DNA of 64,000 nucleotides, taken from the NCBI GenBank assembly GCA_963674825.1, contig OY771587.1, forward strand, positions 3,520,001-3,584,000. Reading direction: 5' to 3'. The notes under the pieces were generated by a model that saw only the letters and a list, made by a program, of their open reading frames with translations, ran no database searches and was not told the origin of the DNA. Made by a program: the position numbers and the translations under genes. Source of the DNA: Candidatus Cloacimonadales bacterium. GTDB lineage: Bacteria > Cloacimonadota > Cloacimonadia > Cloacimonadales > JAIOQZ01. Positions 46,331 to 55,808 of this stretch are shown here, piece after piece. Each line of letters starts with the position of its first letter. Within the stretch, counting starts at the first letter, position 1.

Positions 46331-46485
46331 ACGCTATCCTTTGTTGAAGTTGGAGATCGTGTACCGATGTCATGTGTATCAAGATTCGTTCCACATTGCA
46401 AGAAAAATTATCATCGTACTCAGACGGGAATTCGTTTTCATTGACAGCGAGAGCGGCGACGAGGTTGTTTACCTGCGAGGTAAAA

Positions 46486-48420
46486 ATGAACGTAGTAGCA
46501 TATATCTCCGATCACGGCTTTGGCCACGCAACTCGTATGGAAGCGCTTGTGCGTCAACTAAACGACTTCGGTATCTTCTGCCATATCCGCACGGGCAGAC
46601 CGGAATTTCTATTCAATACGCTCAATGACCAGTTTTATCAATACGAGGATGTACGACTCGACGATGGCATGACCCACGAAAACTGGTGGACCATCGACAT
46701 GGAAACCACCCGGAAGCGGATTTTTGAGCGTTACAAGGATTACGAAGCGCTTGTGGAAGCCGAAGTTTCCTTCCTAAAAGAGAACCACATCGATCTGGTT
46801 ATCGCGGATGTCCCACCGCTCGCGTTCGAGATCGCGAAGCGTGCAGGTGTTTTCAGCATCGCAATCTCAAACTTCGACTGGCACTATATCTACCGCAATG
46901 TATTCACCCAAGATAAAGAGCTGAAGCCCCTCCTCGATCAGATCGCCTCGCTGTATGGCAAGGCTGACTGTTCTTTCCGACTTCCGTTTTCGGACAGTCA
47001 GAGCATCACCGGAGAAAAAAAAGGCGTTCTGGCCAGAAAACTTCCGCAGAATCGCGCAAAATTCTGTCGTGAGCACAATATCGATCCCAACGACCTCATC
47101 GTACGTGTTTCCTTCGGTGGTGAAGGCGGTAATCCCGTCGATATGGACAGCCTGCTGAAAGTGCCGGGTATCACGGTTCTCACCAACGATCAGCACGGCG
47201 AGGATCACGATAACTACCGCGCGCTTTCGGGAAACCAGGCTTTCACCGAAGCACTGGGTGCGACCGATGTCATCATCACCAAGCTCGGATACAGTACGCT
47301 GGCCGAGTTGACCCAAATGGGCATTTTCCTTATCTATACATACCGCGAAGACTACCCGGAAAACAAGATCCTGGAAGGCGATCTCGATGGTTACGCACGC
47401 AAAATCCACGTTCCGCTCGATCAAATCGGCAGCGCAGACTGGAACAACCTGCTCGATCAGGCTAAACAGCGGCTTCAAGAACCTTACAACGTACGCAAGT
47501 ACAGGAATCGAAATCGCGATATCGCGCTAAGCTGCATTCAGCGCTGCTTCGATGGCCGGACCGGCAAGAAAGCAGTCATCGATGTGGGAACCAACAACAT
47601 CCAAATGCTGTGGGCAATCGGTAAGGATGTAGTACACCGCGCATCACAAATATCAGCTCTGGGCAAAGGCATGAAAGACGGTATCCTGACCGGAGCTGCG
47701 ATCATTCGCGCCAAACACATCCTGCGAGACTACGTAGATTCCGCACGTGCCTTCACAGAAGATATCACCGTCACCGGAACCAGTTGCTCCCGCGAGGCAA
47801 AAAACATTCACCTGCTGTCCGACTGGCTTCATAAGCGCTACGGAATCGGCTATCACATCCTCTCCGAAAAAGAAGAAGCCGGGTTGAGCGCACTGGTGAT
47901 GCGGGTTGATTTCCCGGAGCATAAACGCCTGGTATCGTTCGATATCGGTGGTGGCAGTACTGAATTCAATCTTCTGCAAGACGGTGAATTGCTCGAATCG
48001 ATCAGCTTACCGGTGGGAATACGTCGCCTTGAAAACCTGTTCACATCGAATACCGAAGCAAAGATTGAGTACATCTCAAGCCAATTGAACCGTATAGCAA
48101 GCTGGAAAAGTGAGCCGGTGACACTCGTGGGAATCGGCGGAAGTATTGCAAATCTTGCTGCCGTGAAAGCCGGATTAATTCGCTACAATCCAGAAATTGT
48201 CCATAAAATGATCCTCAGCTCAGACGATATGAAGAATTTCATTGACACTTTCGGAAAATTAACCTACAAAGAAATCCAGGAACTGATGCCTTTCGAACCG
48301 GCTCGCGCGGATCTGATCCGAACCGGTTCCATATTTATTAAGATGGTTATGGACTTTTTCGACCAGGAAAGGGTGATTGTTAGCGACCGTGGCTTGATGT
48401 TTGGAGTGCTGTACCAGTAA
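46486..48420 (+). CDS. GT-B glycosyltransferase-like domain fused to a Ppx/GppA phosphatase
   Basis: N-terminal 'YISDHGFGHATR', 'ITKLGYSTLAE'; C-terminal 'IDVGTN', 'GTSCSREAKN', 'EEA', 'DIGGGSTE', 'RADLI', 'SDRGL'; GAGGT RBS before ATG 46486. Confidence 0.82.
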   Translation: MNVVAYISDHGFGHATRMEALVRQLNDFGIFCHIRTGRPEFLFNTLNDQFYQYEDVRLDDGMTHENWWTIDMETTRKRIFERYKDYEALVEAEVSFLKENHIDLVIADVPPLAFEIAKRAGVFSIAISNFDWHYIYRNVFTQDKELKPLLDQIASLYGKADCSFRLPFSDSQSITGEKKGVLARKLPQNRAKFCREHNIDPNDLIVRVSFGGEGGNPVDMDSLLKVPGITVLTNDQHGEDHDNYRALSGNQAFTEALGATDVIITKLGYSTLAELTQMGIFLIYTYREDYPENKILEGDLDGYARKIHVPLDQIGSADWNNLLDQAKQRLQEPYNVRKYRNRNRDIALSCIQRCFDGRTGKKAVIDVGTNNIQMLWAIGKDVVHRASQISALGKGMKDGILTGAAIIRAKHILRDYVDSARAFTEDITVTGTSCSREAKNIHLLSDWLHKRYGIGYHILSEKEEAGLSALVMRVDFPEHKRLVSFDIGGGSTEFNLLQDGELLESISLPVGIRRLENLFTSNTEAKIEYISSQLNRIASWKSEPVTLVGIGGSIANLAAVKAGLIRYNPEIVHKMILSSDDMKNFIDTFGKLTYKEIQELMPFEPARADLIRTGSIFIKMVMDFFDQERVIVSDRGLMFGVLYQ

Positions 48421-48458: not shown

Positions 48459-50612
48459 ATGTCTTCTGCGATGAAAATAGAGCAATTACCGCGTGGCGGA
48501 ATAATCGTACGCTCTGGTGACGATTGTATCCAATATGGAGCACCACCCGAAACGATCAAGGACACCCAAAGGCGTTCTGAAGGCGTTCCAAGACACTATT
48601 TAATACCACATCAAATGTTCGATATCCAGCGCGGAATCTCGCTGGCTGATATGGAATTCCCCGTTTATTACAATTTTTTCCAGAGTGGTGGGAAGACCAT
48701 CATCATCTGTACTGAGGAGCAACGCAAACGCTTACAGATGATCCTTCGTGAATCTCTTTTCGGACCGGAAAAGCTTGAACCTGCCTATCTCGAATCTGAG
48801 ATACGCTATTTTCGCAATAACCCATTCAATCCCGGCCATCAGATGAACCTCTCGGACCTGGTTCAGTTCAGGGTATTCAAGAATCACGAGATAACGATCG
48901 GTGGTTTCAGCATTCGTCGTCACAATGACGGAAGCTTCGATGTTGTTGATAAGGATGGAAATCAAACAAACCTGGCCCAGAACGCAATTTTCGGGGAGCG
49001 TCCTCAGATCAGTGACGTTCATTATTATTCCTTTCGCCAACCAATCTACGGGATTACCATCCTTGGTGCAGGAGACGGTTTCAACCCCGATTCGATAACA
49101 TCTGGAATGATCGTCTGGGTAAACAGGCGCGGAATTATCGTCGATCCACCGGTAAACACTACCGAACGCATGGCTCGACTCGGAGTGAGCCCCAAGCTCA
49201 TCGATAGCGTGATCCTGACCCATTGTCATTCCGACCACGATGCCGGTACCATCCAGCAGCTCATGCAGGAAGGACGACTTAACCTCTATACAACGCAGTC
49301 TATCTTCTCAGGATTTTTGCGCAAAATCTCAGCGCTGACCTGCATCGAGAAGGATCATCTGCGCAAGATGGTCTCTTTCTACCCAGTGAAAATCGACGAA
49401 CCGCAACGCATCGGCGGAGCGGAATTCCGATTCCAGTACAACCTCCATTCGCTGCCTACGATATCTTTCAGGGTATCTCTGCACGGTATTGACATGGTCT
49501 ATAGTTCCGACACGCAAAACGATCCCGATTTCATCGAAAAGATGTATCGTGAAGGGTTTATCGATCAGAAGCGTCGTGATCAGTTACTGGATTTCCCATG
49601 GGACAGCGATGTTATATTTCACGAAGCAGGCTCCAAGCCGCTCCATACACCGATAGAATTTCTCTGCAACCTGCCAGAGGAAGTACGCCGCAAGATGTAT
49701 CTTCTGCACACCGACTTATCAAGAATTCCACCAGATTCCGGCCTGCGGATCGCCCCCACCGGATTGGCGAATACCATCACGATGGATGTCGGCGAGATGC
49801 CGCATGATGCTGCTATCGAAGTGCTCGATGTGCTCTCGCATATGGATATGTTCCGTGAGCTTCCCATCGAAAAAGCACGCGAGATTCTCATCTATATCAA
49901 ACGTCGGTCATACGCAAAATCCGAAGTGATTCATCGTGAAGGCGATCCGGCAGAGTACTTCAGCATCATCCTGCACGGTGCTGTGCGAATCGAAGTAAAT
50001 GGCAAACATATCACGACGCTGGGAAAGGGCGATTTTTTCGGTGAAAAATCGATGATGCTTGGGTTAAGCCATAGCGGTGACGCTGTTGCGGAAACTGATG
50101 TAGAACTGCTATCTATCGAGCGGGATGATTTTTACGCGCTGATTCAAGGTACCGAACTGCAAGACACGCTGGACCATCTGGCACGCATTCAGAACCTCGA
50201 GCTCTGGAAGCTGGTGCAAAACAATCCTGAATTCGCCAGTCTTACGCCTACTCAGATCAATCACCTTCATCGTATGTTCAATTCGGAAATTCTATCCATT
50301 GCAGCCGGAAAGAGATTCATCCGCCAGGGCGATCTGATCGATTCATGCTACGTTATAAAAAAAGGCAGTGTCGATGTGATTCAGAATAACCGGGTCATTG
50401 ACACGATTGGAGTGGGCGATATTTTCGGCGTGACTGCGATCTTCGATAAGGAACGAAAAGTTCACCACGGCTTTCGCTGTGTCGATGATGTCGAGCTGTA
50501 CTCGATCGGACGTGAAGCGATGATCGAATACATCGAGAAGAATCCCGGTGCATATGCCCGGCTATATTACTCGAACTATATCCAAAGTTCACCGGAGAAC
50601 AGATGCTTGTAA
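48459..50612 (+). CDS. Metallo-beta-lactamase-fold hydrolase (putative cyclic-nucleotide phosphodiesterase) with two cNMP-binding domains
   Basis: 'LTHCHSDHDAG', 'LHSLP', 'YSSDT', 'HEAG..PLHT'; cNMP domains 'GDFFGEKS' and 'GDIFG'. Confidence 0.82.
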   Translation: MSSAMKIEQLPRGGIIVRSGDDCIQYGAPPETIKDTQRRSEGVPRHYLIPHQMFDIQRGISLADMEFPVYYNFFQSGGKTIIICTEEQRKRLQMILRESLFGPEKLEPAYLESEIRYFRNNPFNPGHQMNLSDLVQFRVFKNHEITIGGFSIRRHNDGSFDVVDKDGNQTNLAQNAIFGERPQISDVHYYSFRQPIYGITILGAGDGFNPDSITSGMIVWVNRRGIIVDPPVNTTERMARLGVSPKLIDSVILTHCHSDHDAGTIQQLMQEGRLNLYTTQSIFSGFLRKISALTCIEKDHLRKMVSFYPVKIDEPQRIGGAEFRFQYNLHSLPTISFRVSLHGIDMVYSSDTQNDPDFIEKMYREGFIDQKRRDQLLDFPWDSDVIFHEAGSKPLHTPIEFLCNLPEEVRRKMYLLHTDLSRIPPDSGLRIAPTGLANTITMDVGEMPHDAAIEVLDVLSHMDMFRELPIEKAREILIYIKRRSYAKSEVIHREGDPAEYFSIILHGAVRIEVNGKHITTLGKGDFFGEKSMMLGLSHSGDAVAETDVELLSIERDDFYALIQGTELQDTLDHLARIQNLELWKLVQNNPEFASLTPTQINHLHRMFNSEILSIAAGKRFIRQGDLIDSCYVIKKGSVDVIQNNRVIDTIGVGDIFGVTAIFDKERKVHHGFRCVDDVELYSIGREAMIEYIEKNPGAYARLYYSNYIQSSPENRCL

Positions 50613-52386: not shown

Positions 52387-52647
52387 TTATCTACCTTTGC
52401 GAAGTTTTTTGTCCAAATGCAGCATCGTGAACTGCCTCTTCACACGATGATTGGCAATTCGTTCCAGAACAAAGAACACAAGAATACCAATTGACAGCGA
52501 TAATACACTACATAACAACAGGAATTCGTTTTCTGTGTCCCGGAAGAACTCCAATGCCAAAATAATGCCGCCTAACAAGCCAATTACAAATATAGTAACC
52601 CCGACAATCACCATCTGTTTGCTTGACTTAGCCGTTTTGGTGAACAT
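52387..52647 (-). CDS. Small 2-TM hypothetical protein
   Basis: AAGGAG RBS; two hydrophobic helices. Confidence 0.6.
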   Translation of the reverse strand: MFTKTAKSSKQMVIVGVTIFVIGLLGGIILALEFFRDTENEFLLLCSVLSLSIGILVFFVLERIANHRVKRQFTMLHLDKKLRKGR

Positions 52648-52868
52648 AAACACTCCTTAATAAGATCAGTAAAGCAATGTTCAGTGTAATGTCAAGAAGA
52701 TTCGGCAAGTCAATGGAAAATGATTTGAGTTCACATGACAAATCCTGTATATTTTTAATATGCAATATTTGAATGCTCTGAGGTCGGAAAACTTGCCGAA
52801 AAAAAGGTTGCGTAAATCCCATGAGAAAAATAGATTGAATAAGTGAAAAATGAATATTGGGATGAAGT

Positions 52869-53561
52869 ATGTTTAATTTGAAAATCATGATTCCGCTACT
52901 GATTCTGCTTCTGCTTTCTGCTGCTGTAATTTCCTACAAAGTCTTTGTTTACGAGAGTAAAGACAAGCTCGTCCCGCGCGTTTCCGTGCTGAATCTCGAC
53001 GAGGCAATTGCGGTTCTGGAATCGCGTGGACTCGATTATCGAGTTACCAAAATTGGTGATACCGAGCCCAATCCGGACGATCCGGTTATTCGGCAGGAGC
53101 CGATCGCTGGAACGCGTGTATGGGATGATATGGTCGTTGAGTTGATTGTCTCGAACCGGCCTATGCCGCTTCCGGAAATTGACTCACTCAATGTAGCTGA
53201 AGCCGTTCGGTTGACCAACGAATATGGTTTCGAGGTTGCCGACACACTGTACGCTTACGACGATTACATCCCTGAAGGATTAGTTGTAGGCTACAAAGAT
53301 CGCAGCACGACGACTGTTTTGAAAACACCGGTGACGATCATTGTCTCCAAAGGTGTTTCCTGGGGCACGATACCGAGAGTTACTGGTATTCACGCTCAAA
53401 GAGCCGAGAAAAAGCTTCGAGACGCTGGTTTCTCGAACATAGAATTTTCAATGAAACCGGATAAAAAACTACTGGAAGGATATGTATTGGATGTCCAACC
53501 CAGTAGTGGAAGATATAGAAGAGACACGACGATCCACGTCACTGTATCAAGTGGATCGTGA
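52869..53561 (+). CDS. Membrane-anchored protein with three PASTA domains
   Basis: 'VPRVSVLNLDEA', 'VIRQEPIAG', 'LIVS', 'IPRVTG..AEKKLRDAGF'. Confidence 0.85.
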   Translation: MFNLKIMIPLLILLLLSAAVISYKVFVYESKDKLVPRVSVLNLDEAIAVLESRGLDYRVTKIGDTEPNPDDPVIRQEPIAGTRVWDDMVVELIVSNRPMPLPEIDSLNVAEAVRLTNEYGFEVADTLYAYDDYIPEGLVVGYKDRSTTTVLKTPVTIIVSKGVSWGTIPRVTGIHAQRAEKKLRDAGFSNIEFSMKPDKKLLEGYVLDVQPSSGRYRRDTTIHVTVSSGS

Positions 53562-53606: not shown

Positions 53607-55808
53607 ATGAATCGCGTATTGATCATCGAAGACGAATCCAGCATGAGGGATCTCTACAAGAGCCTGCTGGAAGACCAGTTTTATGAACTGTCGGAAGCGG
53701 AGAACGGCACGCAAGCGCTCGAAATGGCGAAAGAAGAGCCGTACGACCTCTATATAACCGATATCATGATGCCCAAGATGAGCGGAATGGAATTCCTTCG
53801 TGAGCTTAAAAAAGCCGACCCCAACGCGCATGTGATCATCGTCACCGGCTACGACGACATCTCGTACAACCGCAAGGCAATCGAATATGGCGCTTGGCGG
53901 TATCTGGTCAAGCCGGTCTCACGCGGAGAGTTTCTCAACGTCGTACGCATGGGTCTGATCGAACATAACAAGCTCGTAGATCCCGATTTCATGGATTTCG
54001 AACAAGTTCCGCAGCCAGTGCCTGAACCTGATAGCGAGTCTACCTCTGATTCAGCTCCGGAAGCTGAGCCTGAAGGAATCCTGGCGAATGAGCCGCTCCT
54101 CAAGGATATCACCTTTAAAAAGCTCGAACAGCTCAACGCCGAAGACGCCCTGGATATCTACCGTGAGAGCGAAGAAGACTTCCTCGAATTCGTTGAAATG
54201 CCACTCCAGCAACTTCTGGAAGAGATCGCGAATCAGCTACCCGAGTACATGCAATCCGTTCTAGAATCTGAAGAAAAGCTCTTCGAGCCGATTGTTCGTA
54301 AGCAAATGAAGAAAGAATTTGCCGTAAACTATTATTATGGCGCATTTTACCCGAAGGGTGGCAACAAGAGTCAGGACGGGCAACTCTATGTGGCCATCAA
54401 CGAAGATCGCTTCGAGTATGGTTTCATCATCGGAGAATACGGCGACGATCAGCGGCTTGTATTCATTGGCAACCTTCGCAATCATAAGGACCAATTGGTC
54501 GAGGATCTCGAAGACATCGTAAAGGATAGCTCCATTACGATGGGCTCACTTCTGGCAAAGCTCATGGATGCTGGTGAGATTGATCAGGATGAGATGACTC
54601 CCATCCTTTCTACGCCGAACAGCAGTCCCGGCGGTACGCATGCTTGCTATCAAATTCCGCGAGAGAAGGCAATCACTTATACGCTTGAATCAATGGTTGA
54701 GTTGGTTCTCGCCGGTTTTATTAAACTCTATCCTCTCCTGGTTCTAACGACCGGCAGCGATGCTCTGGAGAAGCTGAATCGGTCATCCAGCTTTATCCCA
54801 TCGCAGGAAGAGCTCGAATCCTGGTTGGAGAAAGAAATAACAACCGACACCTTTCAACAACAGGCACAACCCCAACTCCAGCCCAGACCTGCCAGTATTA
54901 CCGAGTTCCCAGCTGTCGAGACGCGTGAACCTGAGCCGTCAAGGCCAATTGTGCACGTTCCGGAGAGAAGATACGAGCCTCCAGCAGCGAGAATAGAGCC
55001 GGTTTACGAAAGCAGTTTTCTATTCTATCAGCCACGTTTTCTAGCTGACGAAGAACCAATTATCCCCGAACCTCCAGCTCGCTGGAAATCACTTCTCAAA
55101 CGCCGTCATCAGATATTCCTGCGCGGTGGATCAGATGTCCAGTACATGGCCGAAAACCTCGCACGGTTGATGATCAAAGATACTCAGGGCTTCCGTGACA
55201 CACTCATTTTGCATCCGTCTTTGAAATACAGCGATCTGGTCAGACAACCGAAATCAATCTATCCGGACGGCTTTATGCCGTTGTTCTTTGAGGCAGCCGG
55301 CAATACCGAAGAACCCTGTGTGTTGATTCTGAACCACTTCGATACCAGCGATCAGCTTGAAATCCTGGGAGAATACATCTATTTGCTTCAAAATCGCGGA
55401 ACCAAGCTTTCCATCACCCGTTCCAGCGAATTCCTTGTCGTGCCTAAAAACGTATATCTGATCGCGACCGGTAACGGCCCAATCGAAGACACGCGCGTGA
55501 GGGAGGTCTTCCCCACTATCGAATACAAACCCGATTATACGATCCTTGGCAACTACCTGCCAGACGAAAAGGCAATGGATTTGCTCAGCTTGCTGCAAGA
55601 GCTTTTCAACATGCAGCCAGAGCTGGAAAACGCGATCGGAGTTCAGCCGTTCCTGCGTGAGCGCGATGAGCTTGAAGAACTGATGCCAGATATCTGGGAC
55701 ATCGACATCCTGCCACTTTTTACCGCAACACTCCAGCAGAACGGCCTGAAACCTTCCGAATACAACTGGGAAAGGCTCGTTGAAACCAAGCTATCGAGCT
55801 GGAAATAA
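53607..55808 (+). CDS. Response-regulator receiver domain fused to a degenerate McrB-like AAA+ protein
   Basis: REC 'IIEDE...TDIMMP...VTG...VKP'; C-terminal McrB-like segments 'HPSLKYSDL', 'CVLIL', 'LGEYIYLLQNR', 'PKNVYLIATGN', 'DIW..DILP'. Confidence 0.7.
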   Translation: MNRVLIIEDESSMRDLYKSLLEDQFYELSEAENGTQALEMAKEEPYDLYITDIMMPKMSGMEFLRELKKADPNAHVIIVTGYDDISYNRKAIEYGAWRYLVKPVSRGEFLNVVRMGLIEHNKLVDPDFMDFEQVPQPVPEPDSESTSDSAPEAEPEGILANEPLLKDITFKKLEQLNAEDALDIYRESEEDFLEFVEMPLQQLLEEIANQLPEYMQSVLESEEKLFEPIVRKQMKKEFAVNYYYGAFYPKGGNKSQDGQLYVAINEDRFEYGFIIGEYGDDQRLVFIGNLRNHKDQLVEDLEDIVKDSSITMGSLLAKLMDAGEIDQDEMTPILSTPNSSPGGTHACYQIPREKAITYTLESMVELVLAGFIKLYPLLVLTTGSDALEKLNRSSSFIPSQEELESWLEKEITTDTFQQQAQPQLQPRPASITEFPAVETREPEPSRPIVHVPERRYEPPAARIEPVYESSFLFYQPRFLADEEPIIPEPPARWKSLLKRRHQIFLRGGSDVQYMAENLARLMIKDTQGFRDTLILHPSLKYSDLVRQPKSIYPDGFMPLFFEAAGNTEEPCVLILNHFDTSDQLEILGEYIYLLQNRGTKLSITRSSEFLVVPKNVYLIATGNGPIEDTRVREVFPTIEYKPDYTILGNYLPDEKAMDLLSLLQELFNMQPELENAIGVQPFLRERDELEELMPDIWDIDILPLFTATLQQNGLKPSEYNWERLVETKLSSWK

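Follow-up and report, generated by a model that had tools for sequence, protein, structure and literature searches.

A receiver domain fused to a DUF2461-like domain and a degenerate McrB GTPase domain: a candidate response regulator derived from a restriction subunit in Candidatus Cloacimonadales

The window analysed here is a stretch of 64,000 nucleotides from a Candidatus Cloacimonadales bacterium (assembly GCA_963674825.1, contig OY771587.1, positions 3,520,001–3,584,000, forward strand). The window genome is one contig of 3.89 Mb and is 99.6% complete. The gene under study is a single intact open frame of 733 codons at 53607–55808 (+). Its 733-residue product carries, in this order, a receiver domain (REC), a DUF2461-like domain and an McrB GTPase domain whose catalytic motifs are altered. 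The first-pass annotation, made from the letters alone, had reported this intact frame, and the complete open reading frame (ORF) confirms it. It had also proposed that the gene is a co-opted restriction GTPase. We hold with good confidence that the product is a domesticated, non-catalytic regulator.

All parts of the gene are given on the plus strand. The REC comprises residues 1–120 (53607–53966), with the phospho-acceptor D52 at 53760–53762. It is followed by linker 1 (53967–54092), which is Pro/Glu-rich and variable, with 42–50% identity among orthologues. The DUF2461-like domain (residues 163–385, 54093–54761) has a predicted fold like that of YktB and structure 2a8e. Short helices and a Pro-rich linker 2, modelled mostly with low confidence, occupy 54762–55073, and the pseudo-GTPase, an McrB AAA+ core and lid, occupies residues 490–729 (55074–55793). 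Scans with Pfam, NCBIfam and PADLOC recognised nothing outside the REC, a single-sequence search of the PDB gave no match for the other domains, and no helix-turn-helix (HTH) was detected in the Pfam scan.

The nearest relatives are uncharacterised DUF2461-McrB proteins (P0006, P0128 and BAY59737.1 from a Leptolyngbya boryana plasmid), colinear over both non-REC domains at about 24–35% identity. These proteins, called donors here, keep the catalytic motifs, and most of them bear further N-terminal domains where the fused protein has its REC. A profile of 119 active donors matches residues 166–402 with E 1.7e-40 and residues 491–725 with E 8.8e-19, both for 5.8e9 sequences. Conversely, E. coli McrB is matched by a profile built from fused proteins alone (E 6e-20). 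For the C-terminal domain the score is 91.6 bits and the hhalign probability 99.6%, whereas none of 200 shuffles exceeded 3.1 bits. The predicted model shows a complete AAA+ core and lid, although the alignment behind the model is rich in donors. The McrB scaffold that the first-pass annotation saw in the C-terminus is thus supported by profile, hhalign and model-based structure comparison. A chance resemblance to McrB was rejected on the basis of the shuffle controls and the match of the fused-only profile to E. coli McrB.

The catalytic motifs have all changed, as had been noticed at first. Walker A, GPPGTGKT in active proteins, has become G--GSDVQ (remnant RGGSDVQY, 55122–55145), with two residues deleted and the Lys and the Thr gone; the five proteins of the genus all read G--GSDVQ or GEA--DV. 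In Walker B, IIDEINR has become ILNHFDT (remnant LILNHFDT, 55323–55346), and Asn-His replaces Asp-Glu in 5/5 genus proteins. The McrB signature MNTADRS is reduced to GNGP with a 5-residue gap (remnant ATGNGP, 55464–55481), and its Asp is absent from all ten fused proteins that have a GTPase domain. One refinement concerns N623, which may be in register with the signature Asn; the position is Ser in 4/4 orthologues, and the Asn is in register only in P0001 and P0233 of the ten. LRRRF has become VREVF (remnant REVF, 55500–55511), so that the two trans arginines are Glu and Val here and Glu/Gln and Val across the genus. They correspond to R425 and R426 in the numbering of Thermococcus gammatolerans McrB; according to PMC7680126 these two serve as sensor II and arginine finger, and mutating them impairs both activity and the formation of hexamers.

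The helix-2 insert is also shortened in the nine fused GTPase domains aligned, of ten. The donors retain Walker A in 118/119, a strict-pattern Walker B in 96/119, NxxD in 119/119 and RRRF in 119/119, and the full set is found in 0/10 fused proteins. From these residues, GTP hydrolysis by the 733-residue protein is very unlikely. The AAA+ domain is homologous to that of McrB in McrBC (E. coli 6hz4/6ut6; T. gammatolerans 6ut3–6ut7), yet the fused protein lacks Walker A, Walker B, NxxD and both trans arginines, has the shorter insert and an N-terminal REC, and no McrC was found in its genome. It is not a member of an active McrBC, but it is derived from McrBC.

Motif loss also occurs in REC-less DUF2461-McrB proteins: P0171 has lost all four motifs, and P0132, P0176 and P0264 have lost NxxD. 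These proteins suggest repeated inactivation within this McrB clade.

The middle domain had been likened at first to the N-terminal module of some McrB-like proteins. The donor profile supports this, and remote homology and fold tests place the domain with DUF2461 (PF09365), as a DUF2461/YktB-like domain. The PF09365 cut-off was not reached by P0001–P0005; the homologous region of the relative P0006 gives 36.9 bits. The domain shares 14% identity with the uncharacterised B. subtilis protein 2a8e, which we take to be YktB/DUF1054. DUF2461 is now tied to McrB as a likely reader module, and no publication in the literature searched names both. A stand-alone canonical DUF2461 gene lies elsewhere in the same genome (L007:1501–2139, equal to G000 C1:2647668–2648306).

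The fused protein might be a phosphorylation-controlled nucleic-acid binder: the DUF2461-like domain would still recognise DNA or RNA, perhaps modified bases on DNA that enters the cell, while oligomerisation would fall to the dead GTPase. The domain is indeed a homologue of the donors' putative reader domain, but the signature of that reader is altered. KND is present in 114/119 and WGA in 118/119 donors versus 0/11 fused proteins, and a conserved Arg of the donors is replaced as well as KND and the Trp. Instead, 10/11 fused proteins carry a FEP[IVL] motif found in 1/119 donors. The domain is also more acidic: its net charge ranges from −12 to −21 among the seven placed members, and the median for 143 donors is −5 (P0227, −12; P0233, −3). 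With this difference and the loss of the conserved reader motif, DNA binding becomes less likely. The tie to McrB-N, the ADAM 5-methylcytosine reader (DUF3578), runs only through 2a8e in a search of the whole model; that search was dominated by the AAA domain, and no McrB-N chain was among the structure matches listed. No DUF2461 or 2a8e protein with demonstrated DNA binding turned up in the literature searched. We consider the nucleic-acid binder quite unlikely.

The REC itself is intact in every active-site residue examined. Residues 4–113 match PF00072 (E 3.8e-31, 108 bits), and E8, D9, D52, T80, Y99 and K102 are invariant in 5/5 orthologues; the fold, acidic pair, phospho-Asp, Thr/Ser and Lys of a canonical REC are all present, which bears out the complete REC first described. 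The Thr position is Ser in four distant members of the family. The closest REC in the genome, at 55% identity, belongs to a REC-PilT-like protein, and all others share at most 37%. The gene for that protein terminates a type IV pilus operon of pilC, pilB and pilin-like genes. A REC tree unites 10 fused and 12 REC-PilT receivers in one clade (support 99/99), in which the two groups are sisters, a relationship that fits copying of the REC in either direction. Full-length REC-PilT is present in 12/232 genomes of the phylum, among them all five carriers of the fused gene. Helix 1 of a REC sets kinase specificity. Among the 58 REC rows of the genome, only the fused protein and REC-PilT have R-x-L-Y in this helix.

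The REC-PilT-like ATPase gene lies outside the window, within the pil operon, at G000 C1:3061929–3063482 (L022:11930–13468). Its Walker A is kept, and in 12/12 genomes examined Walker B has changed from GEMRD to an EDI-like and the His box from TLHT to a TM[RK]-like sequence. REC-PilT is possibly a second REC pseudo-NTPase. In G007, a genome of a sister genus (L015:1477–3351), the REC-PilT fusion is replaced by a REC with a cyclic-nucleotide (cNMP)-binding-like domain, named by inspection, which precedes a PilT with intact motifs.

The fused gene occurs in 5/232 genomes of the phylum, namely 4/4 of the genus and G006, which belongs to another genus of the same family. A profile search over 1.84 billion representatives returned 1285 matches, and inspection of the best 150 for REC revealed P0227 and P0233 as further carriers. 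A search with P0233 added P0267, P0268 and P0269. The family thus amounts to 11 distinct fused proteins. P0295 and P0313 were excluded as unrelated REC proteins, and a metagenome scan with the first alignment gave 108 pattern matches, none of them a relative. The distribution is narrow, five genomes of 232 and a few metagenome proteins, and the hosts are known from metagenome assemblies only. P0227, at 1326 residues, has two long inserts: one, charged and coiled-coil-like, separates the REC from the DUF domain, and the other precedes the GTPase domain.

The GTPase domain has decayed to different degrees among the ten proteins. GKT, Asp-Asp, an Asn and two arginines survive in P0233, and GKT with the Walker B Asp in P0269; no other of the ten retains the Walker A Lys. 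In P0267 and P0268 the Lys is Arg; both trans arginines are kept in these and in P0233. P0227 alone keeps the Walker B Asp-Glu, its other motifs being lost, and in the genus of the window no motif is left. The result is a graded series from a nearly intact through a fully dead to a deleted GTPase, which allows tests of what the McrB fold does without GTP hydrolysis.

Quick trees, drawn from subsets of 48 and 33 donors, bear on the origin of the fusion. In the concatenated tree, 8 fused rows among 56 fall on one side of a branch supported at 93 in the Shimodaira–Hasegawa-like approximate likelihood ratio test (SH-aLRT), with long branches; in the DUF-only tree, 8/9 fused proteins group at 98 and P0227 stands apart. 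The FEP[IVL] motif and the REC clade favour a single origin, with P0227 uncertain.

The first-pass annotation had pointed to orthologues and the ratio of nonsynonymous to synonymous substitution rates (dN/dS) as a check. Full-length orthologues exist in the three other genomes of the genus, 72–74% identical and with the same dead motifs. In the pseudo-GTPase core, which is 75–81% identical, the proportion of nonsynonymous differences (pN) is 0.12–0.16 against 0.59–0.78 for synonymous ones (pS) in 6/6 pairs. The dN/dS is 0.06–0.11 in the core (4/6 pairs with defined dS), 0.11–0.13 in the DUF domain (3/6 pairs), 0.11–0.23 in the lid, 0.03–0.08 in the REC (6/6 pairs) and 0.23–0.39 in linker 1 (5/6 pairs), all of these being Nei-Gojobori estimates near synonymous saturation and hence rough ratios. 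Neutral evolution of the C-terminus is excluded, and a pseudogene was rejected, on the low dN/dS of the dead domains across near-saturated synonymous sites. The gene is retained under purifying selection, which fits co-option.

A rival explanation is that the REC works alone, as a phosphate sink or by competing for the kinase that serves the REC-PilT-like protein, with the McrB parts carried as passengers for folding or solubility. The REC is the most conserved part of the protein (88–95% identity, with the lowest ratios), the GTPase domain is gone in G006, and both dead domains sit on long branches. Against this, both dead domains show ratios near 0.1, clearly under those of linker 1. A stop codon after the REC would be the easier route, yet the DUF domain is kept in 11/11 and the GTPase domain in 10/11 proteins. 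This explanation appears unlikely to us.

A restriction partner was sought in the five carrier genomes, each at least 90% complete. McrC (PF10117) is found in 0/5 of them, while the same search is positive in 2/14 controls; DUF2357 is found in 0/5, and the control genomes are equally silent. With an active donor as query, only the fused gene matched in the five, and a scan of the window genome's ORFs with the donor profile yielded no further McrB. The sole donor-type locus examined, that of BAY59737.1 on the Leptolyngbya plasmid (L053), has the mcrC-like BAY59738.1 directly downstream, unlike the fused gene. The statement that no mcrC follows proved right, the next gene being a convergent aspartyl-protease-PDZ gene.

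It had been suggested that the protein is a dominant-negative regulator, and a dead subunit may in principle poison or regulate an McrBC-like ring, in its own cell or of incoming systems. Its complete AAA+ core and lid in the model would suit such a part, and McrB-like genes exist elsewhere in the phylum, where 38/232 genomes match a donor (5 of the 38 via the fused gene itself). In the carriers a dominant-negative role has no visible target, because neither McrC nor an active McrB was found in 5/5, and this suggestion is not borne out. The arginine positions that disrupt the hexamer when mutated, according to PMC7680126, are moreover lost, and the helix-2 insert is shortened. Such a poison subunit is very improbable.

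Two McrB-family systems show partial likeness to the fused gene. According to PMC11090510, CnuA of Type I-B CoCoNuT carries a REC, CoCoPALM is linked to predicted pilus assembly factors, and both systems have McrC. In CoCoNuT, as described there, a separate coiled-coil protein bears the REC, beside an NxD GTPase and an McrC homologue, whereas in the fused gene the REC is part of the McrB polypeptide, with a dead GTPase and no McrC. The donors are of the MNTAD type and no McrC was found in the carriers, which sets the family apart from CoCoNuT and CoCoPALM. The occurrence of REC in these McrBC-derived systems still recommends the idea that the protein serves defence under two-component control, together with some unrecognised effector, as proposed for CnuA, and so does a weak anti-Pycsar-like match 3 kb upstream (E 0.004, below the cut-off). 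The gene, however, is in 4/4 genus genomes at a stable position behind a PASTA gene, whereas defence islands are patchy; no nuclease was seen among its neighbours in the compared loci, and the PADLOC matches are confined to the REC. We give a surviving defence function scarcely any credence.

Response regulators whose output is an AAA+ domain or a degenerate enzyme are familiar from the NtrC family and from degenerate GGDEF/EAL proteins. The fused protein likewise joins an orphan REC to an output domain that is sometimes, in those regulators, a pseudo-enzyme. It differs from the NtrC family in that its AAA+ domain is McrB-derived and it has no detected HTH; its identity as a sigma-54 activator was rejected on the McrB derivation. 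No REC-McrB fusion is described in the literature searched, largely without subscription papers and with PMC11090510 represented by main-text passages, whose supplements could list one. The REC-DUF2461-McrB fusion is real, conserved and apparently undescribed.

The gene 45 bp upstream, at 52869–53561 (+), encodes a membrane-anchored protein with three PASTA repeats (Pfam PF03793, E 1.5e-20), probably co-transcribed with the fused gene. Promoter and terminator scans were close to shuffle levels (8 versus 5.2 and 6 versus 3.5). A PASTA gene lies directly upstream in 6/6 loci with context, at gaps of 8–45 bp, but these loci come from kin genomes and are not independent evidence. It is an extra PASTA paralogue, distinct from the rsmB-linked PASTA gene; the window genome has two others, the rsmB-linked one and one for a 723-residue protein. 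In two genomes of a sister genus those two are the only PASTA genes, and the fused gene is missing along with the extra paralogue. On the other side, the fused gene shares the 18 bases of its 3′ end (55791–55808) with the convergent aspartyl-protease-PDZ gene. There is no kinase gene adjacent to the fused gene within the window. Only G002 has a kinase-like gene, a candidate identity, downstream and on the opposite strand.

The restriction GTPase proposed at first stands in its McrB ancestry of both non-REC domains, its loss of catalysis and its purifying selection; the dominant-negative role finds no support, and nucleic-acid binding is weakened. We favour, with moderate confidence, a non-enzymatic response regulator domesticated from a type IV restriction subunit and likely acting through protein contacts. 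A kinase would phosphorylate D52, probably the one serving the REC-PilT-like protein, and phosphorylation may alter self-association or the exposure of the two dead domains. These domains would be protein-binding surfaces, engaged in neither GTP hydrolysis nor the reading of methylated DNA. The output, together with the PASTA protein, might control type IV pili or the cell envelope, the weakest step and a tentative role. We infer D52 phosphorylation, the kinase shared with REC-PilT and the pili or envelope role in falling confidence. As to history, a DUF2461-McrB gene would have acquired a REC and parted from mcrC, after which the motifs would have decayed unequally across lineages. Such a protein would clearly exemplify how a prokaryotic defence enzyme can persist as a response-regulator output once catalysis and the nuclease partner are lost.

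Several facts weigh against this regulator. The G006 protein consists of REC and DUF domain only, with no GTPase remnant within 18 kb, and the GTPase domain is dispensable in that lineage; its close relatives L032 and P0269 possess the domain. P0233, judged by its residues, may still turn over nucleotide. P0233, P0227, P0267 and P0268 are known without genome context, and a single origin is not proven, since the DUF-only tree places P0227 apart from the other fused proteins. To these come the roughness of the substitution ratios and, for the pilus link, the presence of REC-PilT in at least seven genomes without the fused gene, the distance of the fused gene from the pil operon and the modest likeness of helix 1 to that of REC-PilT (6/14 positions, where none of the other 56 REC rows exceeds 5). 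The analysis identified no kinase, partner, transcript or phenotype for the fused gene.

A wider circuit is rather doubtful. One receiver lineage might drive both a degenerate PilT in the pilus operon and, next to a PASTA wall-binding protein, a dead McrB, the two pseudo-NTPases together forming a phosphorylation-controlled circuit for pili or DNA uptake. If that were true, a restriction motor subunit would have been captured whole by a two-component pathway, and the 11 proteins would be snapshots of the passage from defence enzyme to signalling protein.

Further genes lie upstream. A small two-helix membrane protein gene at 52387–52653 (−) is divergent from the PASTA gene and has counterparts in G002 and G003; G006 has one of similar size, matched by size only. 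The protein at 48459–50612 (+), about 3 kb upstream, has a metallo-beta-lactamase fold and two cNMP-binding domains, and is the one with the weak match, to anti-Pycsar Apyc1. The gene at 46372–48420 (+) encodes a weak glycosyltransferase-like N-terminus fused to a Ppx/GppA phosphatase. Both of the latter genes occupy the same position in G002 and G003.
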